Shown here piece after piece: positions 1-38,162 of a DNA stretch of 64,000 nucleotides (its first letter is position 1; the number at the start of each line of letters is the position of its first letter). Position numbers and translations under genes: made by a program. The notes below the pieces were generated by a model, which searched no databases, was not told where the DNA came from, and saw nothing but the letters and a program-made list of their open reading frames with translations. The DNA is from Nemertoderma westbladi (lineage: Eukaryota > Animalia > Xenacoelomorpha). The stretch lies in the NCBI GenBank assembly GCA_032718475.1, contig JAUCBJ010000121.1:1-64000 (forward strand), in the 5' to 3' direction.

Positions 1-430
1 TTATAAAATTAACCCTTTCAAGATCCTGGGCCCTATGCGGGCTGCCACTTTTAGAGGGTACTGTGGACAAGCAATATTATATTTATATACTGCCATCTGA
101 AATATCCCGTAATCCATATAGGATGCCAATGAATAGCATGTCATTTTTTATGATTTTGTCACGTTAGATGTTGACCAATTACTTCAATTTCTATACAGAA
201 TGCAATTTTTTGAATCTTATGGCTGTGTTGTCTGTATCCAAAAAGATCAAGCCTTACCATGCCATGGTGTCTGGACAATTGTGACCCGGACTGTGAGCGA
301 ACAGGAAACACTATCATGTCTATGTCCAAATACAAACACCATTGCGTGGTTACAGTTGGTTTAAGGGGGGTCCATTATCATTGTCAGTAAATCACAGTTT
401 AAAAGAGTTTGTCAACAGGATGAAAAAGGT

Positions 431-1312
431 TTAAACGGGTTTAGCATTGTCACCAATGTCTGCAGCAGGATCCTGAGTAGGGAACTTATCACCTCTCATG
501 GAGTCAACACTGCCATTGCCTTCAAGAAGGCACAGCCTCTGGATAGGGCGTTGGTAGTGACCCTTTGCCGTTTGTATCGTCACAGTCCTCGCAAGTCCGT
601 CTTTACTCGGGTGTATTGCTGCAACTCGCGCCACAGGCCAGTGTACACGGTCTTTGAGGTCTTCCTTCACTAGCACCATGTCGCCAACTGCGACATTCCT
701 ATAGGTGTTGCTCCACTTCCTCCTGGTCTGGAGGGTTATGAGATACTCCTGGGCCCAGATTCTCCACCAATGTGCCGCCAACGCTTGGGCCTTCTTCCAA
801 TTGGTATGTCTCGCGATATTGTAGGGATCTGGGAACGTTTCCTCTGGAAGAATGTTGGTCTTGGGTCTTCCGAGTAGATGGTTAGGTGTAAGGGACTCAA
901 CCGGGGCATTCACCATCTGGGTATTACGGTAAATTAGTCCGTGCTCTCCCATTAATGGTCTCAATGTTATTATTGCAATTAACGTCATTATCATTATCAA
1001 CAACATTACTAGCCACCAAAGCATGGGCGAGCACCAATGTCCGTCTTTGAACGTTGCCTGATCAAGAACGTCGACACAATATTGATCTTCCTCGGACGGG
1101 TTCTCGTCCTTCTCGGCAAACTCTAGGGTCTCTAGGTTGCAGTATTTGGTCATCTCCTGCTGGGTTTTCTCGGTCTCAAGGAATAAATCCTCGCCCAGGT
1201 CTGTAGCTGAACAATAACCCACGGAGGTTGCATTCTCTTTAATCTGACATTTAGGGAGGTATGTATAGGTGTCTATAGTCTCCTCCTTGATGCCGCAGAG
1301 TGTCCATCCCAT
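431..1312 (-). pseudogene. pol: BEL/Pao post-protease linker fused to integrase C-terminal (DUF5641-type) region
   Basis: GWTLCG...EDQYCVDVL joined directly to RPL...LTPNHLLG...WWRIWAQEYLITLQTRRKW...VGDMVLVKE...WPVARV...DGLARTV. Confidence 0.85.
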
Positions 1313-1487
1313 GATTGTACGTTTGGCATAAAAGCCATCATCCTGCTTTACAGATCAGGCGACGTCTCCTGTGGGTATGTGTAATTCCGGTGTGTCGAGT
1401 CCGATCAATAGGGTGATGCGGTTCACGTCCAACGGTGGACATCTTAGGTCTACATCTTCCCGGTCTAACTGTATGAGTGGGGCGTAT

Positions 1488-2153
1488 TCAGCTGATTGTC
1501 GGAACCGCACTCGGAGTTCGGTGTGTACCAAGGTGTTCTTGATCGTCAGCTTGACCGTCTCGTAGCCTTTCATGACTCCTTTCATCTGGAGCAAGCACCT
1601 CCCCGGACTCTACTTCTCTATGGTCGGTGATAGTTTGTATGGGCCATTTGCAAGGTTTGTAGTCTAGGCAAAGTTGTTCGAGGAAATCCCGGTCGATGAT
1701 GGTTCCGTCCGACCTGTTATCGAGGAACGCGAGCGTTGTCAAGGATTTCCCGACCCCTTGAATTCTTACTGGGATTACTTTGGCGAAGACCATGTAACGG
1801 CGATTTATAAGGTTGATCGTGGCCGAGATATTTGTCACTTGTGATACATCGGTGGAGGTCTGAAATGGGTTGGTTTCCCTACATTGAATCGTCCGGGTTC
1901 CTTTAGAGACGTGGTTCGTTTCTCCTCTTCGTTTGGCTTTGATCCGAAAGGGGAGGGTGGTGAAGTCAAAGTTTGCAGGGATGTAGAGGAGTGTGTGATG
2001 ACGTAGGTCATTACAGACTGCGCAGCACGATCTTTGGTCGCAATCCCGAACATAGTGACCTGTTCCGAGACACCGGAAGCATCCTCGGTGTCTCATTATC
2101 GCCTCGAAGCGTGGAACGAGTTCAGCAAACAGGAACTTTCTGCAGAATTCCAC
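1488..2153 (-). pseudogene. BEL/Pao Gag zinc knuckles and aspartic protease remnant
   Basis: CFRCLGTGHYVRDC, CCAVCNDLRHH, and VIPVRI...AFLDNRSDGTII (decayed DSG motif). Confidence 0.8.
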
Positions 2154-2259
2154 CTTATGTTTCTCTCCGCAGAAGAGACATATAGGGGAGGCTGTTATGC
2201 CTTCCCTTTTGGGTGCTTACGGCTGATGTCGGTTCCTCGTAATCCTCGTCATCCAAGTC

Positions 2260-3018
2260 CTAGGCCATACTGACGGCCACCGTACTCACAGGAGTAGGGC
2301 GGAATCTTGGGTTTGGAGCGGGTGCCCTGCTCTGGTAATTGCTCTCCATCCCATCCAATTTGGAGAGACTCTGTTTGGAGAACATGGGGTCGTTCATGGC
2401 CTCTGATATATCTTCTTTGAATGCCGACATTTCGAGGAAACTAGGATCCCGATCCAGGTGTCTGCGTCGGAGATCGACACATTTATACGCCCATTTGCTT
2501 TGCAGCCATCCGGGGAACTTTTGGGCAATCTGTCGGAGGTTTAGAATGTTGTTTACTTGTTCCTCCTTATTTAATGGTTTTAGAGTGTAGTAGGCATCTT
2601 TCATGGAATCCGAGAACTCCTGGATATTCTGTGGGTCACCTAGGGACCCAGCGTCCTGTATCAGTTTCTCGAGAGTCTTATTAATTATAGTCCCGATATT
2701 TCCGTATCTTTTGTCTAGAGTTTTCCATGCATCATAGTATGCTTCATGAGATCCTCCCTCGAAACAATTAATGATTTGGCGTGGTTTGTCTCCCAGGTAT
2801 TGGGATAAATATACCAGTTTTTGTGCGTCGGTTATGTCCGTTGACCCAATCTGAGCGAAGAACCGTTTCTTGAATCCGAGGTAATCGATGGGGTCTCCTT
2901 CGAAGGTGCGGATCTCCATCTTGGGCATGGCTAGGCGGTTTTCCAATGCCCGGATAATGCCGACGTCATCTGAACTGGAATGACTAGGAGGGTTATAGTT
3001 ATTAGCACTCTCTCCCAT
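2260..3018 (-). pseudogene. gag: BEL/Pao Gag capsid-like (DUF1759-type) segment
   Basis: MPKMEIRTFEGDPIDYLGFKKRF...AWKTLDKRYG...KFPGWLQSKW; flanked by stops and frameshifts. Confidence 0.85.
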
Positions 3019-3479
3019 GCATGATGGATCGATGAGAGGTGGAGTTTTAATGATGACGCGGTTACGGATTTGTGGTGTGGATGTAAACGGGTTGTTGGAT
3101 CAAGGGGTGGCGTCCCGTTCCGAGTCCCTTTCAGGCTCGTACTTGGGTACACCCGGTACCGTGGGGTTGGAGTCGAAATAAGTTTCCTCATTTTTAAGCG
3201 TAACCGGTGGGAGATGAAATACTGGTGCTTGTGCAGATAACGTAGACTGTACGGTGGGCGGGAACTCAGGTTTCGGAGGTTTTGCATCTGGTGGCGTAAA
3301 TGACTTCTCTAATTCCGGTACCGGGATTGGTTCATAGTTCTGTTCTATACCCCTTTCCCAGTCCTCGTATAGTTGAATATCCTATTCTATAAGTGCGGCT
3401 TCGTATTCCGCGAGTTTCGCAATATCCGCATTCTTTTTATGGATGAGAATCGCTTGGGCCTCGGCATGTTGTTTACGCA

Positions 3480-3765
3480 TTTCTGCCTCCCGTTTGCGTT
3501 GTTCGGTCTCCTGTTTGGCCTCTCGTCTACGTTGTTCGGCCTCCCATTTGCGCTGTTCGACCTGTCGTTCAGCCTCTTGTCTATGCTGTTCGGCCTCCTG
3601 TTTGGCCTCTCATCTACGTTGTTCGGTCTGTCGTTCGGCCTCTTGTCTATACTGTTCAGCCTCCTGTTCGGCCTCTCGTCTACGTTGTTCGGCCTGTCGT
3701 TCGGCCTCTTGTCTATGCTGTTCGGCCTCCTGTTCGGCCTCTCGTCTACGTTGTTCGGCCTCTCA
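3480..3765 (-). repeat. ~66-bp coding tandem repeat (coiled-coil Gag segment)
   Basis: Repeating ggcctctcgtctacgttgttcggcctgtcgttcggcctcttgtctatgctgttcggcctcctgttc units that read AEQ/AER-rich on the minus strand. Confidence 0.75.
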
Positions 3766-4394
3766 TTTCTGCATTTTGGCTGCTAATACATCTTGCTCGA
3801 CTCGCAGTTGAACATACTCATCTTCCATCCGAGCTTTGAGGGCCAATGTCTTCTGCTCTCGTAGCTGATCTCGGAGTGGTTAACCCCCTTGAGAACTGCG
3901 TGCTGAACCGGACCTCTCGTCCTAGCGCTGGAGTGCTGGTTCCTAGAGGACCCCGTTCTCTTTCGATTAATTGCTGTCCTCTGTTCGCACTGATTCTGCG
4001 TCTGTTCTTTCAGCTCTCTTATAATATTGTTCCTCGTAGCCTCTCACGAGGCTGAGGGTCCTCCGGTGTTGATTGCGGAACTCATCTAGATGTACCACAT
4101 GTTCTTCTAATCTGGGGTAGTTTACCTGATCAGTGGCGGGGATGAGTTCTTAATATGCCTGTATCATCCTCTCATATCGTTGTAAGATATTTCGAATATT
4201 CTGAAGCTGAGTTTGTATCTCGTTGAGGGGGGTTTCGACTCTCCTGAGATGTTTCTCTATACGCTGATACGCTCGAGTGACTCCGCCTTTGAGAGCGCCT
4301 AGTCAACGGGTCATGTTCTTGACGTTCGGTACCTCGTCGGCCTCCGAGTCTGTGTGGGTGTCCATCTCATCGGCGTCGGAGACGTTGTTCGTCG

Positions 4395-4586
4395 TCATTC
4401 TAGCGCCTCGTTGATAGCTAGATATGCGATGTTGTAAAATAGTTCTTCGTAGCTTTCGTACTCAGCTTGGACTACCCGAACGGTAATCCTGAATCGTCCG
4501 ACATTCGTTCCTTGTACTTCAACCTCGACGTGCCAGATTCCTGGCTCAACTTGGATTATGTCGATGGGTGTGATCGATACTTCCAT
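4395..4586 (-). CDS. 63-aa orphan ORF directly upstream of the BEL gag
   Basis: ATG start, globular-looking composition; its TGA (4395-4397) overlaps the gag ATG (4396-4398) as ATGA. Confidence 0.4.
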   Translation of the reverse strand: MEVSITPIDIIQVEPGIWHVEVEVQGTNVGRFRITVRVVQAEYESYEELFYNIAYLAINEALE

Positions 4587-7107
4587 TCCCTGTTAACGAC
4601 TCCCTATATGTAATCTGCCGACTACGAGTTTATTAGATCGAGTTTGTCGATTGATTAAACCACGGCTTTGTCTTAACTCAAATACCAGAGTTTCCTCGTA
4701 GTGGGTGCTGGGTAAGCACAGAGAGAGTTTGAAGAGTATTGTAGGATTCCCAACTTCCACCAGTTGAAGTTGGCCGCATCTTATTCTCAATTTTGTTGCC
4801 ATTATTTGCCATTACTTCTTCATCCTCATCTCTCAACATTCTAACATCCGATTCTACTGCGCTGTTTGGCTCGCCTGGTTTTTCTTTTTCCGTGTCTGCG
4901 TTTTGAGTTTCTTGTTCTCCTTGGTGTCGTTCAACTTTCTCGATGGCAACGTCAGTGGGTGGAATGAGGACGGGTACAACATCGTCATGGATGTCTTTAA
5001 TTACAACATAAGGGTTATATTGGCGCCCTAGACGGCCTCGCCGATTCATACGGCCTCGTTGTCCGTAATTAGTGATAACATTAATTATGGGGTTACGCCC
5101 ATTTATATTAATTCGATCAATTTTTCTACAGTAGGTATGCTTAATAATCAATTTCGTGCACACCACTTGTTTGTTTTTTTAAATAGCGCATTTAGAGGAA
5201 AAGGAACAGGTTAATGACGTGGTCATTTCTAAGCAAAACAATAAACGATCACTTTGCCATTTCAGGGAAACCATATGCTGAGACAGTCAGTAGTCACATG
5301 GTTTGACACTCAGTAGTCACTCTCGCGTGTCCGTCCCACCCCTCCCGAACCCCGAAAGGATTGGTCATCGGGAACCAGTACGGCTTGGCTAGGGGTCCAT
5401 CGGTTCATCGCAGAGACCCAACCACCTAGGCTTTCCGAGTCCTTATTCAGGCTTGTAGTCGCTTCGGCAGCCGAGAAACTGCTCCGAACAGTCGGTAGGC
5501 CAGTAGAGTCCAGTCCTTTGTCTTTCGACCCCGTTGCGTGTCCGTCCCACCCTTTCCTCACCCCGAAGGGATCGGTCACCTGGCCAGGCCATATATCCAA
5601 TAGTAAAATAATTAAAAAATTTAAATTTCAAAAACTATAAAAAAGATAACTTCCCCTTTATTTTAAAATATATTTCAAGTGGATTTATAAGTTTAATATA
5701 TGGGAGAATCAAAGCTAAAAATTACTTATCAACCCACTTAACGATTAATATTATTAAATTTTGGATATGTAGATACAAAATACAAAGGTAGCAGTACCGA
5801 CAATATATAACAATTTCCCAGGTTGCGAATCAGGATGTGATTGTGAGTTGTCTGCTTAGGCGACTGTGTATTACATTAGACGGCAGTTTGTTTGGTTGAT
5901 GTAAGTCATTATTGGTTTTCATCCTCCAATCCCATCTGTTTCATGGAGTCTGTGTGATGCATGTTAGTTACGGCGGCGGCGACAGAATCCATATGCTGAG
6001 AGGTCAGCCTCCGGGCCGCTCAGTTTACGTGCGTATACGTTTATTCCAAACACTCAATCGAAGAAATTATCTTTAGTTTAAAATTATTATTAAAAATATG
6101 AAGAAATTATCGGGAGGGGGTGGGCCATCACGCTGTTGAACTACAGAACAATTTATCTACGATTTCTCGCGAATTCTTCCAGTTTCTCAAACTCTTACAA
6201 TTTGCTGTGCGCGATATAGCGCTCTCTAACAGCGGAGCAACTCAGTCAGTCAGTTGTTTACTTCAGTTGTTCTTCTCACCGGAGCTGATGTTTCCTTTAC
6301 CAACTTCTATTCTAAGACGCCAAGACCACATTTTTTTGATAGCGAAGTCTTATTCAAGGAACGGCAGGTCATAGAAGAATCGTAATCAGATGTCTCGAAA
6401 CAGTTGAAAAGTTCAGCATTGGGTATGGGTATTCCGAGTGTGTTTCGCCAGAGCGAAAGGCAGATTGTAAGTGAATCTCACATTAAAGTAGCGCCAAAAG
6501 TGCCTTCATTGATCGCCTGCGCTTCAACATCGACTATGTACTACAGTGGGCCTACTACCAACAAACTGTAAATAAAAAAATTAATACCAACAACTCAAGC
6601 CCATCTGTTGATGTGTGGTAGTGGTAGTAGAGGAGAGGCTACTACTGCTGTACTGCTTTTGGTAGGCTTAACAGGTTGTTTATTTATTTGAGTTTATTAT
6701 GACTGTATGAGGTTGCTTGGCAATGAACAATTGGACAGAATGCACAATACAATGCATAACACATAAGGTGTATGTAGGCCCTACACCTTGATAACACAAT
6801 ACAATGAGTCAACCCACCTTTCCTTAAATGTCTTATACGCCAACCATTTAATAGACGTCTGGTCTTGCCCAATCAGAGAACAGTAAATAAGCTGCATTTA
6901 ATTAACCAAATGCTGTTATGTGGTAGTGGTTTGTAGTAAGAAAAATATTGGCTTGGAAAAGGAATTTATTAGCACATAATGTAAATATTGTACTTAAATA
7001 TTATTTGTAACAACTTCATATTGGATTACTAAAAGAAGCCAGGAATTCACAATAACAAGATCCAAAATGTAAAGGCTATAAGTTCTCTAGACAATAGACA
7101 GTTTCGA

Positions 7108-13893: not shown

Positions 13894-14435
13894 TGTTAGC
13901 TTATTCAATCCCGCTAACACCCCATAAAGTTAAGCCGATAAGCAATATTGGGAGCCACGATATTGGGTAATTAACCAACTCGTGCCATCCCAATAAGAAT
14001 GGGAAGGAGAAGCGCACAATGAGGGTCAGGGGCCAAACCCCTAACCCAGAGAGAATAGGTGGAGTGAACGGGAACACTCCAAAGGGCGCCAACAAGGGTA
14101 TCAACCAATCAGAGGGGGGAAAGGCATCGATTAGGTAGAGTAACAAGGCCAACCGTGCAATATAGCCACTTGGCAGTAATCATATCAATTCAGTTATCTC
14201 AGTGCAATACTGGTGCTAGTTTAGGTTACATAGTTTAGCTAGGGAAGGACCGGGACTTTAGTTACCGTATCCCGCCTTCCGTATACAACAACTATATTAT
14301 CTCATATCTATATCTATATCTGTATACCCAAATATTATATACGACGAACAGCACAAACTCATTCACTCTTTATACACGGCGGGGACGCGTGAACTAACAA
14401 CGGATAAACCGGGATCCCTCTTGGATCCCGTCACA
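13894..14435 (+). repeat. 5' LTR of element A (542 bp, TGTTAG...GTCACA)
   Basis: Near-identical to 34370-34883 (3 mismatches seen by eye); the end is set by homology to the TSD-defined LTR end of element B. Confidence 0.9.
14159..14195 (+). promoter_or_regulatory. Putative LTR core promoter: TATA-like box plus TCAGTT initiator
   Basis: aatatag at 14159-14165 and tcagtt at 14190-14195, ~30 nt apart; the same arrangement (aatataa...tcagtt) is kept in the diverged LTR of B. Confidence 0.5.
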
Positions 14436-14444
14436 GTAACTAAA
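14436..14444 (+). promoter_or_regulatory. Non-tRNA primer-binding site of A (GTAACTAAA), complementary to LTR 14257-14265
   Basis: Directly follows the LTR end, lacks TGG, is the exact reverse complement of TTTAGTTAC, and covaries with element B. Confidence 0.7.
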
Positions 14445-14500
14445 TCAGAGCTGCCGCCCTAGCTAACTAAACTCAGCGACCAATCTAGAGATAAAGAGAG

Positions 14501-17006
14501 ATGAGTCAGTCGGGAGAGATAACACCGACGCGGACCCCGGACGAAGAGCTAACGATCCGCGAGGCCGCAACCAGGCGATATAGGCCCACGACGCCGGACC
14601 CATCGGTAACGGGTCATCCGGCAGTTCAGGATGAGGGGGACCTGGAACCCGAGGTCGAGTCGGAGGATAGAGAGAACGAGCTCGAGGGAGAAGGAGACGA
14701 GTCGACACGGGACGGGGGTCGACGCACCGGTGTCTCCGGCCAGCCACAGGCTGAGGGCGACGAGCGGCCCACCGAAACGGCGACGGTGGGGCCGACGGTG
14801 CGGGCCCGGACGCAGAGAGACGAAGGAGATATCGGTACCGATGTCGCCGGCCAGCCACAGGCCGAGGGCGACGGACGGCCCGCCGGAACGGCGACGGTGG
14901 GGCCGCCGGTACGACGTCGGACCCGGAGAGACGGAAGAGAGATCGGCGACGAGGACGTCGGGGTTTATGATCGACTTCGACGGGCCTACAATGCGACCCA
15001 GAGACTACTAAAGGACGCTAAGAAGGAAGGGGCGAAGATAGACGAGGTGAGACTGAGGAAACGACTAGGTGAGTCGGATAGACACTTTAATTACCTAATG
15101 CGTTTTGGGCAGAGAGAACTAGCCGAGGAGAGAGCAAAAGGGGTTGCCAGCGAACTGTTTGAACTATGGGAATGTGGGAGTATGGAACCTAGCGTAGCGT
15201 CAGTGTACATAGGGCCATACTTGGTCGATGCCCGGGGAGTAAAATTAGTGGGTTGGAGGGGACCAGAAGGGGGCGAATCCGAGGTTAACCCCGAGGATTC
15301 GGCCTCGTCGGTTGGAGGAAGTTCCGGGAAGCGGGGGAAAGTTAGTAGATCTGGAAGGCGGAGGGAGTCCGTCGTAACCGATAAGTCTGCTACATCCTCC
15401 GCGAAAGGAAGACGGGTGAGAGAGGTAGGTGCCGCGTACCGTCTCGACCTGGTAGAGCAAGGTCAGAAGGAAATGGATAAACGGCTGGAGGAGGGGAGAA
15501 TGCGGCTAGAGAGGGAAGCGGCATTGATTAGAGAAACCGGAGAGAAGGCCGAAAGGGCTTTGAGAAGCCTTAGGGAGTATGAGGGAATAGAGGAAAAGGA
15601 GTGTAGGGAGCGTGAGGCGAGAGAGGAAAGGGAACGCAAGGAGCGTAAGGCGAGAGAGGAAAGGGAACGCAAGGAGTATGAGGCGAGAAAGGAAAGTGAA
15701 CGTAAGGAGCGTGAAGCGAGGCGAAGGGAGAGCACTAGGAGAATAGCAGAGCTGGCTGAGCGGGACGCGCGGGAATGTGAGAGGAGAATGGTAGAAGCTG
15801 AGCAAGAGCAAAAGGAACTAAAGAGACGCCAAGGTGAGCTTGCGGAACATAGGATTAGACGCATGCACGAGCTGCAGCTGGTGCGGGCGGGGACGTCTGA
15901 GAGCGGGACTGGCTCGAGTATTCTAGGGGAGCCAGGGGCCGTGGATACATTTATTAATACCCCACTTACAGGGACCGCACGACAGACCCAAAACTGGTGT
16001 GACCGTACGGGCGGGGGGGGGGGGGGGGGGGTAATAATGATAATGGTACAGTAGACGTGGTTAATATTAATAGTACCGTATGGGATAATTCTAATCAAAC
16101 CTTTATTGCAGGAAATAATTTACCTAGTGGTAGTAATTTAAATTTAAATCAGAACAATCCTAATATTAATGTAGAAAATAATTCTAATATTAATGTAGCT
16201 ACGCAAAATAATCCAAATAATCAAAGTAATAACCCAAATTCGAACTTACAAAATAATTTAAGTAACGCAATTACACAAAATAATCCAAATAACTTAAATA
16301 ATGATCCGAGCCCGAATTTACAAAATAATTCAGATGGTGTAGTCGCGCAAAGTAATTCAAATGATTTTGTTTCGAACGAACAAATTGGTTCCGTTTCCGA
16401 TATGGGTGCTATTAACGTAAACACGTTGGGCGTGAATGGCCAGACAGACGAGGGCCTGGTAGGCCATGTAGTTGGTAGGCAGGGAGTAGCTGGGTTAGGT
16501 AGACCGAGAGAGGGCCTGGTAGGCCACGTAGTTGGGAGGCAGGGGGTGGCTGGGTTGAATAGACCCAGCGAGGGCCTGGTAGGGCACATAGTTGGTAGGC
16601 AGGGTGCAGAGGGCCTGGTAGGCCACGCAATAGCAGAGGGAGAGGCGGGGGTGAATAGACCCGACCGCAGTAGGGTTGATGTGTCGACTAGAGAGGGATA
16701 TAGTAGCGGGGTGAGGGATAGCGAAGTTAGATGTGGCGAGTGGGGGGGGGGGGGGGGGGCTACAGGGGCCCCACAACAGCGAGTTAGCGGCGAAAGGGGG
16801 GGGCAGAGAGTGTCCCACAGCCGTCAGCGGATAATGCGCGGGCCGAAATAGGTAAACCGCAACAACCGGCGACGGAAAGTAATAGGGGGATTGCGAGTAT
16901 CCCCAGCGGCGTGCGACCGAAGCGGACGAAGCGTCGAGCCCGATCAGAAGAGGGAAGAGGAACAGTGGGGTTTAACTGGGAGGTCGACGAGAGATCTCAC
17001 GAGCGG
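14501..17006 (+). pseudogene. gag: Element A Gag N-terminal extension (disordered, coiled-coil, Asn-rich), broken at poly-G runs and cut by insertion of B
   Basis: ORFs 14501-16054 and 16057-16851 are colinear with B ORFs 21277-23199 and 20612-21382; frame changes fall at G runs near 16013-16030 and 16742-16758. Confidence 0.75.
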
Positions 17007-17537
17007 TGTGACGGGATCTACGGATCCCGGTTTATCCGTTGGGTTTTCTATCCACGCGTCCCCGCCGTATGTGAAAGGTAAAATAGTTCTGGTGTCCGGT
17101 TATATGTATAAGGTATAATAGTCTGATATATATGTAATATAGTATGACACAACAGGTAATATAAGTATGATGGCGGTAGCGGACGGTGACAGAAGTCCCC
17201 GTTCCACCCTACTGATCTGACTGAGTAAACTGAATGAATGATTACAGGTTACTGGTTATATTGCACGGTGGCCTTATTGCTACTCAATCGATGCCTTTCC
17301 CCCCTCTGATTGGTTGATACCCCTGTTGGCACCCTTTGGAGTGTTTCCCTTCACTCCCTGTGTTCTCTCTCGGTTAGGGGTTTGGCCCCTGACCCCTATT
17401 GTGTGTGTCTCCTTTGGGGCCTATTGTCCCCGTTTACTGGGCTGACACGAGGTTGATTGGTAATCAACCTCGTGCTCCCAATATTGCTTTATGGCTCACT
17501 CTATGGGTTAGTGTTAGCGGAATTGGATAAGCTAACA
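17007..17537 (-). repeat. 3' LTR of element B
   Basis: TG...CA termini, preceded on the sense strand by PPT GGGGGGAG and followed by the TSD. Confidence 0.95.
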
Positions 17538-17929: not shown

Positions 17930-19396
17930 CTATCATACTATCTACCTACTGCTTACTAACTCTAACTATCTAACTAACTCTGCTAACTACTAACTCTTAC
18001 TACTTCTAGCTCTAACTGAGAGCCTCTAACTTTCTACTGACTCTAACTCTCTACTAAGTCTAACTAACTCCTACTAACTTTCTACTTCTACTAACTCTAC
18101 TTGACTCCTCTGAGTCTACCAATTCTGCTAACTAGCTCTACTAACTCTACTCCACTAGCTCTGCTAACTCTACTCCACTAGCTCTGCTAACTCTACTAAC
18201 TAGCTCTACTAACTAGCTCTACTAACTCTACTCCACTCTTCTAACTACGTGGCGCTTGCGGTGCCCACAACCACTCTACTATCTGGCACCCTATGTGCCC
18301 TCTCTACTACTCAACTACCTCTCTAACTCTACTACCTGGCACCCTATGTGCCCTCTCTGCTCTACTCTACTACCTGGCACCCTATGTGCCCTCTCTACTA
18401 CACTACTACCTCTCTAACTCTACTACCTGGCACCCTATGTGCCCTCTCTACTACACTACTACCTCTCTAACTCTACTACCTGGCACCCTATGTGCCCGTC
18501 TGTACTCCTCTACACCCCCTTTACGTCTCATCGCCTACACGTGACGCTCTGAGTGCCGGCAGAGTGGGTACGTTAATTATGTGAACTACTACTGACTCTA
18601 CTAACTCTACTAACTCTCTTCTAACTCTACTAACTCTTTTTGTGCCCGGCACCTCTTGTGCCCGGCACCTTCTAACTCTACTAACTCTCTACTAACTCAA
18701 CTAACTCTACTACTAACTCAACTAACTCTACTACTAACTCAACTAACTCTACTACTAACTCAACTAACTCTACTACTAACTCTTTTTGTGCCCGGCACCT
18801 CTCGTGCCCGGCACCCACCCTAATTAACATACCCTGCTCTAACATCAAACACGTCATCACGCCCGTGCCCCATTAAGTTCAACGCATTCCCTACTAACTC
18901 TAACTACGTGGCGCTTACGGTGCCCACAACCTCTACTGCTCTACTACTTCCTAACTAGGTACCACGTACCTACTAACTCTAACTCTAACTAGGTACCACG
19001 TACCTACTGACTCTCTAACTAACTCTAGGTACTACGTACCTACTAACTCTAACTCTAACTAGCGGTACTACATACCCTCTAACTCTAACTCTAACTAGCG
19101 GTACTACGTACCCTCTAGCTCTAACTCTAACTAGGTACCACGTACCTACTAAACTAACTCTAACTCTAACTAGGTACCACGTACCTACTGACTCTCTAAC
19201 TAACTCTAGGTACTACGTACCTACTAACTCTAACTCTAACTAGCGGTACTACGTACCCCCTAACTCTAACTCTAACTAGCGGTACTACGTATCTACTAAC
19301 TCTCTAACTCTAGGTACTACGTACCTACTAACTCTAACTCTGATTAGGTACTACGTACCTACTAACTCTCTAACTAACGGTACTACGTACCCTCTT

Positions 19397-19437
<41 letters not shown>

Positions 19438-19450
19438 CTTACTACCTAAC
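17930..19450 (-). repeat. TAG-rich low-complexity 3' UTR of B containing small-hairpin arrays
   Basis: (ctaa/ctact)n matrix with repeated ggcac-cctat-gtgcc, gtgcc-c-ggcac and about 13 ggtac-nnn-gtacc units. Confidence 0.85.
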
Positions 19451-19490
19451 TTCTACCTACTCTATTATTTAATTATTTTCTTATTTTTAA

Positions 19491-23139: not shown

Positions 23140-23190
23140 CTTTGTCTTTGGTGTCAGTCTATCACTGTCAGGGCAGCTGGGCGGATCTGA

Positions 23191-23199
23191 TTCTGTCAC
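23191..23199 (-). promoter_or_regulatory. Non-tRNA primer-binding site of B (sense GTGACAGAA), complementary to LTR 23379-23387
   Basis: Abuts the 5' LTR end at 23200; exact complement of sense TTCTGTCAC inside the LTR. Confidence 0.7.
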
Positions 23200-23730
23200 T
23201 GTGACGAGATCTACGGATCCCGGTTTATCCGTTGGGTTTTCTATCCACGCGTCCCCGCCGTATGTGAAAGGTAAAATAGTTCTGGTGTCCGGTTATATGT
23301 ATAAGGTATAATAGTCTGATATATATGTAATATAGTATGACACAACAGGTAATATAAGTATGATGGCGGTAGCGGACGGTGACAGAAGTCCCCGTTCCAC
23401 CCTACTGATCTGACTGAGTAAACTGAATGAATGATTACAGGTTACTGGTTATATTGCACGGTGGCCTTATTGCTACTCAATCGATGCCTTTCCCCCCTCT
23501 GATTGGTTGATACCCCTGTTGGCACCCTTTGGAGTGTTTCCCTTCACTCCCTGTGTTCTCTCTCGGTTAGGGGTTTGGCCCCTGACCCCTATTGTGTGTG
23601 TCTCCTTTGGGGCCTATTGTCCCCGTTTACTGGGCTGACACGAGGTTGATTGGTAATCAACCTCGTGCTCCCAATATTGCTTTATGGCTCACTCTATGGG
23701 TTAGTGTTAGCGGAATTGGATAAGCTAACA
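23200..23730 (-). repeat. 5' LTR of element B
   Basis: 531 bp, near-identical to 17007-17537, bounded by TSD AGCGG. Confidence 0.95.
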
Positions 23731-23735
23731 AGCGG

Positions 23736-24435
23736 GAATACTCCACTGAAAGGAGAAGAAGAGAAGACAGTAGTAGAAGTATCGCCGCGAACGATAGAAG
23801 AGCGAGGACGGATAGCGAGCCGTCGGTAGTCGAGATGAGAACAGAGAGTCAGTGGGGTCGGACTCCGGGAGATTGCCGTCGCCCCGGAGAGATGCGACCC
23901 GGCGAGGCGCACTACGCGCCGAGAGAGGGGTACGCGATGTACCGGTACGAAGATGAGAACAGTAGAGGGGGGGGTCGAAGAGAAACTTTCCGACGAAATA
24001 TACCTACCGATCGAGAATACGGTAGCCGCGGGGAGGACTACTCGAGAAGAATAAACTTCGATCCCGAGCGACACATGCAGACTGTAGGACATACTATAGG
24101 CCTTACTGCACATACCATAGGCCATACTGAGAGAGGCAATATAGGCAATAGGATAGCGTGGACAACGGGATTAAACCCGGAAGTCGCGGAATACATACCG
24201 GCGAGTAGCCCAGAAGCTGATAGGCCTATACCGGTACCAGTACAGCAGTGTGACTACAGCATGCAGGGACATAACATATACCCAGGGGAGGGGGGAATTA
24301 TTGCGGATAGGTGTATGGGCCCCAATATATTAACATCAACCCCAGTACCAAACATACCGGTGGGGGGGACAGGGTGACATTCCCCCATCACAATATTAAC
24401 AATATACCCCGATAGGAGCAAGAACAACGAGACCC
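23736..24435 (+). pseudogene. gag: Continuation of the element A Gag N-terminal region after the B insertion
   Basis: ORF 23835-24377 (TTGLNPEVAEYIP, MGPNILTSTPVPNIP) matches the B ORFs; frameshift near the G run at ~24362. Confidence 0.75.
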
Positions 24436-27400
24436 TTGGATGAGAATAGGTCGTGTGATACAGACATATGGAGGGGGCCGCTACCCCCGATGACATACCC
24501 AAGTCAGAGAAAGTCAAGAAATAGGACAGACGGAACGCACCAGACAGGAGAAACTATACAGCATCCATCGAACCCATTGGAAGCACAGGCGATGGGGATG
24601 GCCACGTTGATCGATGCGTTGAAAACGAGGATCGAGCTACCACCCGTGGAACCATTCAAATTCGATGGGAGCAGGCCGGAAGAATATCTACAGTTTCGGC
24701 GCATGTATAGTAACGAAATACGAACAAAAAACTTGACACAGGCGGAGTGCCTAAAGTATCTGCAAGTGTACACGGCAGGCCCAGCATACGATATCGTGAG
24801 GCAATATCAAGGAATAGAGGGCGGCTTCACAACAGCATGGCGGGCACTGGATAGGGAATACGGGCACCCGGCCAAGATCATCAGGCAGACGCTGAGAGGC
24901 ATAACATCGGGTGGCCTACAGGATAATCCCGTTAGCATTAAGACGTTCGCTAACAAAGTCGAAAAGGCGCTAATCGTGCTGAAGACGCTAGACGCGCCGT
25001 ACGAGCTCAATGCGTCCAACAACATCACCACGATAGCGCAGGCACTACCAAACTGGCTGCGCAACAAGTGGGGGAAAATCGCCTTCTCCACTCGAGATAA
25101 GAAGGGTGCGGAACCGGGTTTAGAAGAAATGTCAAACTTCTTAAACTACGAGGCTGAACTAATAACTGACCCAGTCTATAGCGAAGATAGCCTGGGAAAG
25201 GGACCGAAGACAGACTACCATAGACCGAAACCAGAGCACAACACATCAAACGCATTACCGAGACTCAGGCAATCATTGCCATATGCAGCGACGCAGGGGA
25301 CTGCAAGTCCACAGCTAGCCGAGGATAAGACAACACCATGGAACGGACAGGGAAACAATAACAACACAAATAAACATAACCCCAGTACATCCAGTAGGCT
25401 GAATCCAAACAATAAGAATAGTAGGGACTTTGGTACAAACGCAACTGCGATACGCAATGCACTGTATAAAGAGGGCTACGACCCAAAGAGCAAATGCCAG
25501 CTACACGCAAATGCGCTTCATCAAACCATGAACTGCAGGTACTGGCAGGCGCTACCTAGGCAAGATCAGATAGATTATGCATTCAGCAATAAAATATGCT
25601 CGCGATGTGTAATGAGTGGACATAGAGCAAGGGAGTGCAAGGAGAAGCCAATAAAATTTGGTCAAAGGAGAGGCCAAATGATGGCGACGAGCACAGTAGG
25701 GGCGAAGAAGAGGGGAACGGTGTTACTTGGAGTAGTACCAGTGCGAGTGATCGGGGAAGGCAATCGATCAGTAATAACACTAATGCTGGTTGATAGTGGA
25801 GCTGCCTTCACATTAGTCGAGGAATGGGTGGCCGAGGAGATAGGATTGAGAACGAGGCCAAGCAGGATGGCGGTAACAACCATCTCTAGCAAAGATGAGA
25901 TCCTGGAGATGAGAACAGGACGGTGCGCAATTGCAGCAGTGGCACCAGGATGCGACTATGGGGCAACCATCGACCCCATCCAAGTGATAGAGTCAATTAA
26001 TATTAATGCCAGGCGACCAACCAAGATCGAGGTCGAGCAGTATAAATTCCTGGACGACATTGACTTCTCAATCCCAGACGTGGACGTTAGGAAGGTGTCC
26101 ATCATAGTAGGCATGGACTGCCCAACGGCCCACGAAAGAATACAAACGGTCTTCGGCGAAGACAAGCAGAGTGACCCGGTGGCCATATTAACACCATTCG
26201 GGTGGACGCTGAGTGGTCCAATCAAGAGTAAGATACCATTTAGGATGTCGGAGACATCAGGATGCATGTTCGCGGGAACAATGCAGGAAATGGGTGACGA
26301 GGGAGCAGAGGAGCAGCTTAAAAGACTGCTCAGACATGATTTCGAGGGACTGAAAGAAACCGGAGTCGGGACCTCAGTAGAAGACAAGCAGGCTTTACAA
26401 AGCGTGGAGGAACCGATGACATGCAATGAGGGGCGGTATACTATAGGAATGGTATGGAAACTACCGAAGATACCGCTGCCCGACAATAGGGGGATGGTAC
26501 TCACGAGACTCCGCAAACTGAAACAAACACTAAAATGGAGCCCCGAGAAGAATGAGTACATCCACATTACAATTAAGAAGTACGTCGAGAAAGGATGGGC
26601 CGTGGAGTTACCGGTCGACGAGCCGAACACGGATAGGACATATTACCTGCCACTACACATGGCTTTAGATCCAAAGAAAGGTAAACTACGGATGGTAGTC
26701 GACGCATCGGCAAAGACCGACGGAAAGTGCTTAAACGACTACCTGTTAGAAGGCCCAAACATATACAATTCAGGCATAGAGGTGTTACTTAGATTTAGAA
26801 ATGGGAAACACGCCTTCACGTGTGACATAGAAGGCATGTTCAACCAAGTCCGTGTAACGGAGGAAGATAGCGACAGTCAGCGCTTCTTATGGTATAACGG
26901 CGAGAAAGAACCGTCGATAATACCGGCATATAAGATGGTAGTACAGAACATGGGGGCCAAGTCGTCTTCATTTACGACGACTATGGCAGTGAGAGACACA
27001 GTAAAGGGGAAGGAAGATAGATACAGCAGTAGGGCCGTCGATATGATTCGACGCGGCTTCTACGTAGACGACGGAATGGAGTCTGGAAATACGGTTAAGG
27101 AGATACTGGATACAGGGCGCGAGGTTCGCGACATCCTAAAGGGATCCGGCTTTAACCTGACCAAATTCCAATCCAGTTCGGAAGAATTTATCAAGGCCAT
27201 AGAGGACAGGAGACCAGAATCGACCATGGATAATCCCACAACAGCCAAAGGGCAGGACATGGCGATTAAGAGAACAGAATCTCAACAGAAGGCATTGGGA
27301 ATCGTGTGGGATAGAGAGACAGACGAACTGAAGTATCAGCTGAGCCAAGAGGGTGCAGACATCCACACGAAGAGGGGCTATGTATCGTATATAGCAAGGA

Positions 27401-28122
27401 TATACGATCCCCTAGGCCTAGCATCCCCATTATTAGTCACAGGGAAACAGATACTCAAGAGAGTATACAAACTGAAGGATGAGTGGGACGTAGAGGTACC
27501 AGAGGAAATCAAGAAACAGTGGAGCAAGTGGACAGGAGACTTGGAGAAGATGGGAACATACAACATGCCACGGGTGTATTTCCCGGATGGGAACATGACG
27601 AATCTGGACCTACACATGTTCTCCGACGCGTCGTTGGAAGCGTACGGAGCGGCACTCTACTTAGTACAACGAGAGGGGGCTCATAAGCCAAGACTAGCCT
27701 TTAGCAAAGCAAAGTCAACGCCACCAGATTCAGCATCAGTTCCTAAGTTAGAATTGACAGCCGCGAGACTAGGAGTAAGAGCCACAGCCTACCTAGTGGA
27801 TACTATTCCCAACATAGTGGAGACACACTACTGGACGGACTCCATGGTAGTGCTTGGCTGGCTACACAACGAAAGGACGAGATACCCGATATTCGTCGCG
27901 AATAGAGTTGACGAAATAAGGGCGAGTACAGAACTGGAAAGGTGGCACTACTGCCCAACAGACGATAACCCAGCGGACTTGTTGTCGAGGGGCGTGGTAC
28001 GCCACACTTTCTTGAAGAAGGAAGTATTGTGGCAACATGGGCCACAATTTCTGAGCGATAAAGAGGCCTGGCCGCCGATGAGAAAGGTGGACCCGGGCTC
28101 AGAAGTAGTATCAGAAGGATAA
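24436..28122 (+). CDS. gag-pol: BEL/Pao Gag capsid, zinc knuckles, aspartic protease, reverse transcriptase and RNase H
   Basis: LPPVEPFKFDGS; CSRCVMSGHRAREC; LVDSGA; YYLPLH, KLRMVVDAS, CLNDYLLEGP, DIEGMFNQV, GFYVDD; LHMFSDASLEAYG, VPKLELTAA, WTDSMVVLGW, NPADLLSRG. Confidence 0.95.
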   Translation: MDENRSCDTDIWRGPLPPMTYPSQRKSRNRTDGTHQTGETIQHPSNPLEAQAMGMATLIDALKTRIELPPVEPFKFDGSRPEEYLQFRRMYSNEIRTKNLTQAECLKYLQVYTAGPAYDIVRQYQGIEGGFTTAWRALDREYGHPAKIIRQTLRGITSGGLQDNPVSIKTFANKVEKALIVLKTLDAPYELNASNNITTIAQALPNWLRNKWGKIAFSTRDKKGAEPGLEEMSNFLNYEAELITDPVYSEDSLGKGPKTDYHRPKPEHNTSNALPRLRQSLPYAATQGTASPQLAEDKTTPWNGQGNNNNTNKHNPSTSSRLNPNNKNSRDFGTNATAIRNALYKEGYDPKSKCQLHANALHQTMNCRYWQALPRQDQIDYAFSNKICSRCVMSGHRARECKEKPIKFGQRRGQMMATSTVGAKKRGTVLLGVVPVRVIGEGNRSVITLMLVDSGAAFTLVEEWVAEEIGLRTRPSRMAVTTISSKDEILEMRTGRCAIAAVAPGCDYGATIDPIQVIESININARRPTKIEVEQYKFLDDIDFSIPDVDVRKVSIIVGMDCPTAHERIQTVFGEDKQSDPVAILTPFGWTLSGPIKSKIPFRMSETSGCMFAGTMQEMGDEGAEEQLKRLLRHDFEGLKETGVGTSVEDKQALQSVEEPMTCNEGRYTIGMVWKLPKIPLPDNRGMVLTRLRKLKQTLKWSPEKNEYIHITIKKYVEKGWAVELPVDEPNTDRTYYLPLHMALDPKKGKLRMVVDASAKTDGKCLNDYLLEGPNIYNSGIEVLLRFRNGKHAFTCDIEGMFNQVRVTEEDSDSQRFLWYNGEKEPSIIPAYKMVVQNMGAKSSSFTTTMAVRDTVKGKEDRYSSRAVDMIRRGFYVDDGMESGNTVKEILDTGREVRDILKGSGFNLTKFQSSSEEFIKAIEDRRPESTMDNPTTAKGQDMAIKRTESQQKALGIVWDRETDELKYQLSQEGADIHTKRGYVSYIARIYDPLGLASPLLVTGKQILKRVYKLKDEWDVEVPEEIKKQWSKWTGDLEKMGTYNMPRVYFPDGNMTNLDLHMFSDASLEAYGAALYLVQREGAHKPRLAFSKAKSTPPDSASVPKLELTAARLGVRATAYLVDTIPNIVETHYWTDSMVVLGWLHNERTRYPIFVANRVDEIRASTELERWHYCPTDDNPADLLSRGVVRHTFLKKEVLWQHGPQFLSDKEAWPPMRKVDPGSEVVSEG

Positions 28123-29700
28123 GAGGGAGATTCAGAGGGAGAAGATATATACTCCCAGATGGTGAGGGAGATTAGGGACGTGCAACCAGGACGGGAACTG
28201 TGCGATAACCCGACGGATAAACTCCTCAGCTACAGTTCTAGTTGGTATAAGACCAAGAAACTAGTGGCGTACTGGAGAGCCTTCGGCAATTTCCTTGCGG
28301 GAGTTGGCAAGGACAAGAAGATCAGGACAACCATAGATCTGGAAGGAGCGGCCAAGGCAGTGATCCGCTATGAACAACGGAAGAACTATGGCAACGAGGT
28401 GGAACGCATCGGTAACCAACAGCACCTCCGACAGGACAGCGAGCTGATTACGCTGTCGCCACAACTCAATGACGACAGGATTCTAGTAATGCATTCTAGG
28501 GTGGGATACAACAACAGCATAGTCGTACCACCGAAACCCATCATCATTCCTACAGGATCGCCAATAGTCCACCAGATTATATGGGACTCCCACAAATCGA
28601 TATTGCATGGGGGCACCAACCGAACCCTCACAGAGATAAGGAGGACCTATTGGGTCAAACAACTGAGGAAGAAGGTAAAAGCGGTAGTGGGGCAGTGCCA
28701 GACCTGCCGACGAGCGAAGAAGGAGCGAGCCGTACAGGAGATGGCGCCACTACCGGCGAGTAGGGTAAGACAGCACGACCCGCCATTTACGCATTGCGGT
28801 GTGGACATGTTCGGGCCGATAAAGATCAAAGTGATGCGACACACGGAGAAACGCTACGGCATTATCTTCATATGCAACAACACGCAGGCGGTAGGGATAG
28901 AACTCGCCCAAGATGCAACCGCATCAGCGTTCATTAACGCCTTAGAAAGGTTTAGGGACCGCAAAGGTGGGACGATCGCAGTGATATACAGCGACAACGG
29001 CACCAACTTTGTGGGCACAGAGAGTGAGATGGCAGAGGCCTTGGACATCTTGGAGGGAGAAGAAGTCAGGGCAGCCATGAGGCGACGACAAGTAAAGTGG
29101 GAGAGAAGGACACCGTATGCACCACATACACTAGGGTGCGTCGAGAGACTGGTGGGCAGTTCAAAGCGTCTAATGACGAAGCTAATGAACACCCACATGG
29201 TCACTGAGGACGTCTTACGGACAGTACTTGCGAAGTGCGAGGGGATCATTAATAGCAGACCGCTATATCCGGAGAATGATGACCCTGAGTCATTAGACGT
29301 GCTGACGCCTAGCCATTTCCTGATGGAAAGGCCAGCGACCATCGATATGCGGGGTGTAGACCCAGATGACATACACTCCCGCCAAAGTTGGAAAGTCGCT
29401 AAAGCAATAAGCGCAGAGTATTGGAGGAGGTGGGTCGACGAATACCTACCCACACTCCATAAACGAAGCAAGTGGAGGAAGTCAAACAGGGAGTTAAGAG
29501 AGGGAGATCTCGTAATCGTTACGGATGATACTATCATCAACAACCAATGGCGGTTGGCGAGAGTTGTAGGCACCTACTCCGACGAGGACGGAAGAGTCCG
29601 ATCGGTAGAAGTGCGGATAGGTGGAAAGATAGGTGCGAAGGACAGAAAAACCTACAGGAGAGCTGTAGGCAAATGCTGTCTGTTAGAAGGGGCAACTTAG
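28123..29700 (+). CDS. pol: BEL/Pao integrase, same frame as the upstream ORF and separated by one TAA at 28120-28122
   Basis: HHCC zinc motif (H-KSIL-HGG...CQTC); DDE core GVDMFGP, YSDNGTNF, GCVERLV; C-terminal WRRWVDEYLPTL, WRLARV. Confidence 0.93.
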   Translation, partial: EGDSEGEDIYSQMVREIRDVQPGRELCDNPTDKLLSYSSSWYKTKKLVAYWRAFGNFLAGVGKDKKIRTTIDLEGAAKAVIRYEQRKNYGNEVERIGNQQHLRQDSELITLSPQLNDDRILVMHSRVGYNNSIVVPPKPIIIPTGSPIVHQIIWDSHKSILHGGTNRTLTEIRRTYWVKQLRKKVKAVVGQCQTCRRAKKERAVQEMAPLPASRVRQHDPPFTHCGVDMFGPIKIKVMRHTEKRYGIIFICNNTQAVGIELAQDATASAFINALERFRDRKGGTIAVIYSDNGTNFVGTESEMAEALDILEGEEVRAAMRRRQVKWERRTPYAPHTLGCVERLVGSSKRLMTKLMNTHMVTEDVLRTVLAKCEGIINSRPLYPENDDPESLDVLTPSHFLMERPATIDMRGVDPDDIHSRQSWKVAKAISAEYWRRWVDEYLPTLHKRSKWRKSNRELREGDLVIVTDDTIINNQWRLARVVGTYSDEDGRVRSVEVRIGGKIGAKDRKTYRRAVGKCCLLEGAT

Positions 29701-29816
29701 TAGAGTTAGAGAAAAGTTTAGTCGTCCAAGTTTTGGACTGAGGGGGGTGGGATTGAGGGCGAGACGCCCTTCCCACAAACAAGCAAATAAAATAAAATAA
29801 AAATAATAGTACATGG

Positions 29817-30625
29817 TAGGTACGCAGTTAGTAGGCAGAAGTTAGTTAAGAGGTACGTAGTACCTAGTTAGTTAGTTAGTTAGTTAGAGGGTACGTAGTA
29901 CCGCCAGTCAGAGAGTTAGTTAGAAGGTACGTAGTACCTAGTTAGTTAGTTAGTTAGAGGGTACGTAGTACCGCCAGTTAGAGAGTTAGTTAGAAGGTAC
30001 GTAGTACCTAGTTAGTTAGTTAGTTAGAGGGTACGTAGTACCGCCAGTCAGAGAGTTAGTTAGAAGGTACGTAGTACCTAGTTAGTTAGTTAGTTAGTTA
30101 GTTAGAGGGTACGTAGTACCGCCAGTTAGAGAGTTAGTTAGAAGGTACGTAGTACCTAGTTAGTTAGTTAGTTAGAGGGTACGTAGTACCGCCAGTTAAA
30201 GAGTTAGTTAGAAGGTACGTAGTACCTAGTTAGTTAGAGGGTACGTAGTACCGCTAGTTAGTTAGAGTTAGAGGGTACGTAGTACCGCTAGTTAGTTAGA
30301 GAGTTAGAGGGTACATAAGTACCGTTAGTTAGTTAGAGAGTTAGAGGGTACGTAAGTACCGCTAGTTAGTTAGAGAGTTAGAGGGTACGTAAGTACCGTT
30401 AGTTAGTTAGAGAGTTAGAGGGTACGTAAGTACCGCTAGTTAGTTAGAGTTAGAGGGTACGTAGTACCGTTAGTTAGTTAGAGAGTTAGGGGGTACGTAG
30501 TACCGTTAGTTAGAGAAGAGTTAGAGGGTACGTAGTACCGTTAGTTAGAGAAGAGTTAGAGGGTACGTAGTACTGTTAGTTAGTTAGAATTAGAGTTAGA
30601 GGGTACGTAGTACCGTTAGTTAGAA
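29817..30625 (+). repeat. Array of ~22 GGTAC-GTA-GTACC palindromes embedded in (TTAG)n
   Basis: Directly visible tandem array between pol and the third ORF. Confidence 0.92.
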
Positions 30626-31113
30626 GATAGAGAGTAAGAGGTAAAAGGGGGTATATAAGATATAGATATTAGTTAGCAGTTAGTAGAGAGAGGGGGGCAT
30701 ATGAGTACAGCTGGGTAAATCGTGTGGCCACACGACGCATACTGCTGTACTGCATAGGCCCACAGAGTAGGCCAGAATGTGGATTAGAGAATAGAATAAT
30801 CCATAGGCAGTAGTAAGTAGTAGGACAGTAGAATCAAAATTAAATAGGTGAATAAATAGAATAGGGCTGAAAGTTACAAATAATGGCAACACAAGGAAAG
30901 TTATTCTAGAACATAATAAAAGTAACGGACAGAAATTGTAAATTACGCCCATTTACTAGCTTCAAAATTAATTAGTAATAATTTAGGTTAAAAGGCGCAG
31001 TTAAATAGGAAATAGGCCATTATCGAACCGTACAGAACATCCTAGATACATCACTCATCTGTATTGCGCCTTGGTAAGGCACCACCTTGCAGGTGAGCGA
31101 GTGAACGTTCGGA

Positions 31114-34331: not shown

Positions 34332-34369
34332 ATGCTATCTTCTTACCGGGAAGATAGCATGGGGGGGAG
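34332..34369 (+). promoter_or_regulatory. 11-bp hairpin followed by the polypurine tract of element A
   Basis: atgctatcttc-ttaccgg-gaagatagcat then gggggggag abutting the 3' LTR; same module in B at 17538-17574. Confidence 0.85.
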
Positions 34370-34883
34370 TGTTAGCTTATTCAATCCCGCTAACACCCCA
34401 TAAAGTTAAGCCGATAAGCAATATTGGGAGCCACGAGATTGGGTAATTAACCAACTCGTGCCATCCCAATAAGAATGGGAAGGAGAAGCACACAATGAGG
34501 GTCAGGGGCCAAACCCCTAACCCAGAGAGAATAGGTGGAGTGAACGGGAACACTCCAAAGGGCGCCAACAAGGGTATCAACCAATCAGAGGGGGGAAAGG
34601 CATCGATTAGGTAGAGTAACAAGGACAACCGTGCAATATAGCCACTTGGCAGTAATCATATCAATTCAGTTATCTCAGTGCAATACTGGTGCTAGTTTAG
34701 GTTACATAGTTTAGCTAGGGAAGGACCGGGACTTTAGTTACCGTATCCCGCCTTCCGTATACAACAACTATATTATCTCATATCTATATCTATATCTGTA
34801 TACCCAAATATTATATACGACGAACAGCACAAACTCATTCACTCTTTATACACGGCGGGGACGCGTGAACTAACAACGGATAA
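34370..34883 (+). repeat. 3' LTR of element A, lacking its last 28 bp
   Basis: Matches 13894-14407 and then diverges; no TSD recoverable. Confidence 0.92.
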
Positions 34884-37681: not shown

Positions 37682-37965
37682 ACCATGGCTCTTACAGTTA
37701 TGTAAATAATTTTGAGGATACCATTTTTCATAGAGGAATGAGTGCCAATAATAATTTTCGCACTCATATTAATAACTTTGAATTGAATAATAATAAAGCC
37801 AAAATGCAAAACGCTGTTGGTTCTTCCCCTAAGGAAAATATAAATGCAAATTTTACCAATTTACATAATATTAAGAGCCAGGGCTACACGAATAATTTCA
37901 ATTGTGCTCCAAGTAATACTAATCTTACTACCGGTTCTACAAACACTAATATTAGTAGTAGTAAT

Positions 37966-38162
37966 TGTACAGTGTTGATCTAAGTTACCCTTAAGTGATA
38001 TTATATACTTATATATATGTAGGCCTACAGGCCTATGGAAAGTCAAGTATTCAATATATATAACATAAGTACTTCTGTACTTTGTCATCTGGCAATCCCA
38101 TATTTTCATACACAGCAGTCTGGCAGTATATCTACTGCCTACTGGTACTTCAGTACTTTACA
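37966..38162 (+). repeat. Gypsy 5' LTR
   Basis: Identical by eye to 43450-43646. Confidence 0.95.

Follow-up and report, generated by a model that had tools for sequence, protein, structure and literature searches.

Probable self-priming in BEL/Pao retrotransposons, with a bulged decoy helix at the predicted primer end

The ICTV profile describes Belpaoviridae as tRNA-primed elements with an 18-nt primer-binding site (PBS) for tRNA-Arg or tRNA-Gly, and calls their replication poorly understood (PMC8742986). Two BEL/Pao elements, here termed A and B, raise the question of how minus-strand synthesis could start where such a site is lacking. Both lie in one 64-kb window, by which we mean the whole stretch of 64,000 nucleotides analysed. 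Neither A nor B carries the 18-nt PBS of the ICTV profile, and no TGG occurs within the first 35 nt past either 5' LTR, in agreement with a preliminary description of this locus. The lack of TGG at the PBS excludes mature tRNA 3' ends as primers. The preliminary description had proposed that a 9-nt segment of the element's own LTR serves as the primer, by a mechanism apparently unlike that of Tf1. Our analysis supports the self-priming reading, as distant BEL/Pao relatives also show complementarity between PBS and LTR, PBS starting with GT or AT, and a bulged helix at the same cut site. We consider it very likely that the primer of A and B is self-derived.

The two elements are defined by the following features.

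13894-14435 (+): 5' LTR of A (TG...CA, 542 nt), with three mismatches to the 3' copy in 514 nt
24400-28122 (+): gag core, protease, RT and RNase H of A, of BEL/Pao type (PF03564; PF05380, E 2e-40; weak PR and RT hits)
28123-29700 (+): integrase ORF of A, behind an in-frame stop (PF17921, PF18701)
34361-34883 (+): polypurine tract and 3' LTR of A (LTR 34370-34883, final 28 nt missing)
23200-23730 (-): 5' LTR of B (531 nt)
17007-17537 (-): 3' LTR of B

By its domains and their order (PR-RT-RH-IN), the Pol of A is of BEL/Pao type. PF05380 was present in 120 of 120 A homologs among those listed, at 34-39% identity, and a Pfam search of the A Pol returned no hit to the chromodomain that serves as a criterion for Ty3/gypsy chromovirus Pol. 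The TG...CA LTRs, the polypurine tract and a 5-bp target-site duplication, seen around B, are further BEL/Pao traits. Without B, element A is about 14 kb long. An in-frame stop (28120-28122) separates its RNase H from its integrase, and the upstream gag region is broken over several frames. The 3' LTR breaks off 28 nt before its expected end, after which its final bases are repeated in a short stretch (34884 onward); as this LTR is cut short, no target duplication of A is visible. B lies inside the gag region of A on the opposite strand, lacks pol and has only gag-derived coding sequence. Its two LTRs (23730-23200 and 17537-17007) mismatch at 1 of 531 positions, suggesting that its PBS worked recently, and are flanked by the 5-bp duplication (17002-17006 and 23731-23735). 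The LTR copy pair and the flanking duplication thus set the LTR end of B independently of any pairing, and the same terminus, GTCACA, ends the LTR of A. Tandem-repeat blocks common to both elements (18930-19460 and 29800-30640) lie in the 3' untranslated region.

Elsewhere in the window, a Gypsy element (37966-43646, +) with identical 197-bp LTRs, a 5-bp target duplication and an ordinary TGG PBS is inserted in a LINE (~35941-47131). Two more degraded BEL/Pao remnants (~430-5100, -, with PF03564 and PF18701; 57964-60071, +, with PF05380) have no recognisable LTR pair, and two similar GC-rich blocks (~55 nt each, ~210 nt apart) without an Rfam match lie upstream of the first remnant at ~5600-5260 (-). 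A 545-nt inverted repeat (98%; 47973-48517 and 49260-49804) encloses an RT fragment and has more copies near 12287, 57781 and 63068, and a 55-nt tandem array (61051-63111) near the window end is separate from the repeat blocks of A and B. ARAGORN detected no tRNA in the 64-kb window.

The predicted primer ends and the PBS positions are as follows.

14257-14265 (+): 9-mer of A, predicted 3' end of the self-primer; predicted cut 14265/14266
14436-14444 (+): PBS position of A, without TGG, exact complement of the 9-mer
23379-23387 (-): 9-mer of B, predicted 3' end of the self-primer; predicted cut 23379/23378
23191-23199 (-): PBS position of B, without TGG

The account of this pairing in the preliminary description withstood recounting in full. 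All four 9-mers were found where it had placed them, and within each element the two are exact complements, forming a perfect Watson-Crick match with no G-U pair. Three of the nine pairs are altered on both sides between A and B, six are identical and none is broken, within flanks (GGGAC, CGT, GTCACA and TCAGA) that are identical in both elements. The geometry is that of a primer, with the LTR 9-mer's 3' end facing the LTR end and the match beginning at the first base after the LTR. Of 5000 dinucleotide-shuffled LTRs for each element, 8 (A) and 7 (B) contained the 9-mer, or 24 and 15 when offsets of 0-5 were allowed. Cross-pairing of A with B fails, at -4.1 and +0.4 kcal/mol versus -8.0 and -12.6 kcal/mol for each element's own pair. 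The duplex of 9 bp is shorter than the 10-16 nt of relatives. The compensated changes also say less about selection than would first appear, since a self-primer would be copied into the PBS during plus-strand synthesis. A PBS variant, GTAATTAAA, was present in one public contig, with no link made to its LTR partner. The primers of A and B are contiguous and intronless: the junction score for a splice-junction primer was 0 for both, and B has no AG in or directly before its 9-mer, with CTG sitting where the acceptor AG would be needed.

Folding predictions revealed a second, co-varying partner of the 9-mer within the LTR, which we term the decoy. It is new here and absent from the preliminary description. 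The decoy directly follows the 3' strand of a helix, P2, with one C between them.

14266-14276 (+): 5' strand of P2 in A, immediately following the predicted cut; pair probability 0.92-0.97; public contigs show no variant at or above 4%
14281-14373 (+): variable AT-rich loop closed by P2; 35 of 40 variants among those listed; A and B identical in 52 of 105 columns
14378-14397 (+): 3' strand of P2 (14378-14387), bulged C (14388) and decoy (14389-14397) in A
14410-14430 (+): hairpin close to the LTR end; probability 0.98 in A
23239-23259 (-): 3' strand of P2 (23259-23250), bulged C (23249) and decoy (23248-23239) in B

In the predicted folds of both elements, P2 begins at the base following the 9-mer, and the bulged C stands exactly opposite the predicted primer end. 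The decoy pairing uses G-U pairs and bulges. Two of its pairs changed on both sides between A and B, two changed on one side with the pair kept, and none was broken. Because the decoy, unlike the PBS, has no templating route, this covariation points to selection. In constrained folding of the intact RNA, the decoy state was better by 1.6 (A) and 2.8 (B) kcal/mol, whereas cutting the RNA in silico at the end of the 9-mer made the PBS state better by 1.9 (A) and 0.6 (B) kcal/mol; these margins fall within model error, and A and B agree in direction only. The PBS duplex is not part of the lowest-energy fold of the intact RNA (pair probability 0.22 in A, <0.2 in B). In B, the LTR end together with the PBS (23205-23195, -) makes up a short palindrome, by which the PBS is sequestered when the RNA folds into the decoy state.

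Contigs from public DNA runs cover the region of A deeply, and the family is very abundant. At a threshold of 4%, 40 variants were listed, 20 indels not being among them. Those outside the loop numbered five, all in 14391-14409, with none in 14246-14280 or 14410-14452. The variant G14391A converts a G-U decoy pair into A-U and keeps the pair. Contig variants near the edges of the stretch and B-like copies may have been clipped from this set. The public contigs contained no further paired 9-mer/PBS variants, so that the comparison involves only the two primer variants of A and B. The contig variation shows conservation, not added covariation.

Where the RNA would begin was approached through promoter motifs and through the pairing of its predicted 5' end.

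14105-14195 (+): predicted Pol II promoter of A (CCAAT box 14105, TATA-like box 14158-14165, Inr TCAGTT 14190-14195), with motifs spaced as in B
14194-14244 (+): 5' arm of A, predicted to pair with the leader past the PBS (clamp); -36.9 kcal/mol, 4 of 1000 shuffles as good
14457-14504 (+): leader arm of the A clamp, reaching into the gag ATG at 14501
23156-23185 (-): leader arm of B, pairing with the predicted 5' end 23424-23396; -30.9 kcal/mol, 1 of 1000 shuffles as good

The predicted start sites, taken as the Inr A, are 14192 in A and 23424 in B, with the TATA-like box ~30 nt upstream and CCAAT farther upstream. Together with the 5'-arm pairing, these motifs would put the start 65 (A) and 37 (B) nt upstream of the 9-mer, within one base of the 66 and 38 nt given previously. 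The primer looks internal, in line with the earlier suggestion of a mechanism apparently unlike that of Tf1. The pairing of the 5' end with the leader had likewise been missed in the preliminary description. The letters of the clamp largely differ between A and B, and the cross-pairs reach -29.7 and -16.9 versus -36.9 and -30.9 kcal/mol for the own pairs. Over the folded segment, from the predicted start to the gag ATG, the folding z-scores were -2.8 and -2.3. Such a clamp is predicted to hold a 46-74-nt primer in place. Searches of A and B for AATAAA or ATTAAA found none, and an Rfam search of 13000-36000 and 4300-7000 returned no ribozyme and no other family.

The relatives of A comprised the best 80 of 523 loci from 19 of 64 parts of a metagenome collection, at 31-37% identity. 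Many of them share an accession series and may derive from few hosts. Enough upstream sequence for scanning was available for 62 of the 80 loci, corresponding to 51 families. In 17 of the 51, the PBS position matched a GT-AG junction of the family's own LTR exactly over at least 11 nt, compared with 7.3% of 3754 cross-family pairs. The other 34 families had no 11-nt junction match; many of the contigs end within the LTR. The PBS start was left unfiltered, and it reads GT or AT in 14 of the 17 junction families, as it does in A and B. Two LTR copies clearly fix the LTR end in four of them (L004, L010, L032 and L045). L037 and L057 carry contiguous matches, 12 nt and 13 nt long, against 0 of 46 cross pairs in either case. 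Altogether, the relatives carry more than 10 different PBS sequences, each tracking its own LTR. A TATA box was found in just 4 of 16 relatives. The RT of A forms a very long branch (3.48) in the tree and could not be placed among the relative loci. One relative, L072, has a TGG-type PBS (235-430) and is nested among junction-primed families in a quick tree with an unsure root, which hints at primer-type switching. The predicted LTR intron of L062 (181-217), at 37 nt, was under the 45-nt floor of the automated scans and was added by hand. L012/L013 represent one element head-to-tail with a 6138-nt period on a single contig, or the assembly of a circle. Metagenome contigs gave 0 matches to a DNA pattern built on the conserved LTR end, and viral contigs yielded one weak locus, which was irrelevant.

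The decoy helix was compared across 23 families whose PBS is self-complementary, a set curated by hand and made up of 21 relatives, A and B. This set leaves out L021, L029 and L041, whose junction hits look like chance, L006 (motif identical to that of L003), L039 (contig break) and duplicate family members. Our rule called for 3 bp or more past the predicted cut, a single bulged base, and a minimum of 5 bp formed with the primer. It held in 13 of the 23 families, with 1.1 expected from shuffles, and failed in 10; the remaining 19 cells of the grid of cut shift and bulge size contained 0-3 families each. The test was not blind, because the rule was spotted by eye and set after seeing the data; among the 14 families not named at the first by-eye sighting, the motif was present in five (0.8 expected). 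Ten of the 13 families bulge a C, and the perfect PBS duplex beats the decoy duplex in all 13. Bulge and PBS geometry indicate the same bond by separate routes. Plain duplex energy was rejected as a signal, since the primer against the downstream LTR was significant in just 5-6 of 24 loci; the signal is the bulge geometry. In 16 of the 23 families, A and B not among them, AATAAA or ATTAAA coincides with or follows the predicted cut, and this position fits the model because strand transfer requires it.

For A and B we favour, with less confidence than self-derivation itself, a priming route in which the 5' piece of the element's own RNA is cut after the 9-mer, switches from decoy to PBS and primes the minus strand. 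Transcription would start 37-65 nt upstream of the 9-mer, and the 5' arm would pair with the leader beyond the PBS, as the folds predict. While the RNA is intact, the decoy would hold the 9-mer, and a single C would bulge out across from the cut site. An endonuclease would then cut after the 9-mer (AC/CG), most likely the RNase H of the element, by analogy with Tf1, where RNase H cleavage of an RNA duplex reportedly frees the primer. The capped 46-74-nt fragment would remain clamped to the leader while its freed end moved to the stronger, perfect PBS, from which RT would copy 170-179 nt back to the cut and thereby produce strong-stop DNA. This DNA would jump to the 3' LTR, which would restore the primer segment. 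In the junction-type relatives the intron would be restored as well, since the first stretch to be copied lies entirely downstream of the cut. B would use the same signals with proteins supplied in trans, and the decoy state could serve either as the cut substrate or as a safety catch.

The primer could also be self-derived without a cut in the same molecule, namely supplied in trans, either from a short transcript of the LTR or from another copy of the genome, and trimmed at its 3' end to the 9-mer by an exonuclease-like extra ORF or a host nuclease. We regard this as unlikely, albeit the best of the alternatives. The ORF in question is carried by A:

31114-33660 (+): extra 848-codon ORF, a possible 3'-5' exonuclease of DEDDy type bearing zinc knuckles (lead: Atlas features 0.93 to a PF01612 cluster)

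This ORF is intact, lies between the integrase and the 3' LTR with a tandem-repeat block and a TATA-like box upstream, and is absent from B. Its exonuclease-like features and the abundance of the family in public contigs, by which LTR transcripts could be plentiful, speak for trimming in trans, as do the DEDDy ORFs known from rotifer LTR elements (excerpts of PMC5408684), and supply in cis and in trans look the same at the sequence level. However, the exonuclease call comes from one Atlas search and motif resemblance (zinc-knuckle-like Cys/His motifs included), while Pfam, PDB and two protein searches for homologs were blank and the structure model has a pLDDT of 31. Most junction-type relatives consist of a single gag-pol ORF ending near the 3' LTR, and a helix that runs across the site and has its one bulge facing it suits a defined cut better than trimming.

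It is quite improbable that the pairing is structural only, serving packaging, dimerisation or translation control, with priming by another route. The preference of the folded intact RNA for the decoy over the PBS would agree with such a role, as would the leader arm of A that reaches the gag start codon. A structural role nevertheless leaves unexplained why the match sets in with the very first base past the LTR, why the PBS is perfectly Watson-Crick when the decoy has G-U pairs and bulges, and why relatives pair only across the splice junction; no other primer site is in view. Still a shade less probable is a primer of host origin, be it a tRNA fragment or some other small RNA, with the LTR 9-mer a mimic occluding the PBS: A and B differ at three of nine positions, the PBS sequences of relatives track their own LTRs, and neither sequence combines the pyrimidine-32, U33 and purine-37 usually expected of a half-tRNA ending at 39-41, even though the ICTV calls the family tRNA-primed (PMC8742986) and half-tRNA priming without TGG occurs in Copia lineages (excerpts of PMC6317226).

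Returning to the element's own cut RNA as the primer, we consider the feature of A and B to be real and to reflect probable self-priming in BEL/Pao, with a conserved bulged decoy helix as an added element. An origin independent of Tf1 self-priming is plausible. The bulged decoy helix recurs across elements that are only about one-third identical in RT. We give roughly even weight to the broader proposition that a large part of the BEL/Pao superfamily is tRNA-free and uses a second, independently evolved self-priming machine, in which a long capped 5' RNA fragment is cut at a conserved bulged decoy helix and switched onto the PBS, the primer being spliced in some families and contiguous in others, such as A and B. 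If elements such as A and B are indeed self-primed, a third LTR superfamily has reached tRNA independence, by an architecture unlike that of Tf1, and annotation tools for which a tRNA PBS is mandatory would overlook or misjudge many members of BEL/Pao. Host silencing by tRNA fragments at the PBS would then presumably not apply to such elements. As the decoy helix names an exact bond, the claim is testable by RNA end mapping.

Searches of the open-access literature yielded no paper on BEL/Pao self-priming; Repbase, GyDB, subscription papers and supplements may mention these PBS. Word look-ups gave no statement of BEL/Pao self-priming in the retrieved portions of PMC3601003, PMC554778, PMC8220671, PMC3286476, PMC4558846, PMC2774666 and PMC5445492, and the words primer, PBS and tRNA are absent from PMC3118150. 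A shares with the Belpaoviridae (Semotivirus) its LTRs, polypurine tract, gag-PR-RT-RH-IN order and family-specific Pfam domains, whereas A and B differ from the ICTV profile in lacking the tRNA PBS, and A also in its extra ORF and its length (PMC8742986). Junction-type BEL/Pao relatives are like A and B in the PBS position, the GT or AT start and the decoy helix with its one-base bulge, the difference being the contiguous primer of A and B, which shows no junction match.

Outside BEL/Pao, the GalEa Copia elements of fungi have a Conserved Hairpin Site: a conserved 9-nt sequence stands in place of the PBS and has a complementary partner, a feature shared with A and B. The GalEa site, however, is palindromic and its authors found no LTR complement, according to the portions of PMC5445492 covered here, whereas the partner in A and B lies 170-179 nt upstream, inside the LTR. 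Self-priming has also been predicted from LTR-PBS complementarity for the plant elements Tcn1 and TAR (Houba, Osr-1; Ty1/copia), the latter standing outside Tf1/sushi. These belong to other superfamilies and hosts than A and B, and the excerpts of PMC6317226 on them contain no decoy helix or splice-junction primer.

The closest parallel in principle is the Tf1/sushi group of Ty3/gypsy chromoviruses, including Tf1, Tf2 and Tj1, where self-priming uses a primer at the mRNA's 5' end, held in a three-duplex pretzel. In the portions of the Tf1 sources covered here (PMC4600332; bioRxiv 10.1101/2022.12.06.519325), these elements have, like A and B, no tRNA PBS, complementarity between PBS and LTR, a multi-helix context and a primer freed by a cut, the last being predicted in A and B. 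The Tf1 primer, in contrast, is the very 5' end of the mRNA, whereas the primer end of A and B is predicted 46-74 nt into the RNA. In the pretzel, both PBS flanks pair with the LTR downstream of the primer, whereas the predicted folds of A and B pair the downstream flank upstream of it. A and B further differ by their BEL/Pao Pol and by a competing decoy strand. Thus, A and B appear to resemble Tf1 in principle, while standing outside the Tf1/sushi group with a different predicted architecture.
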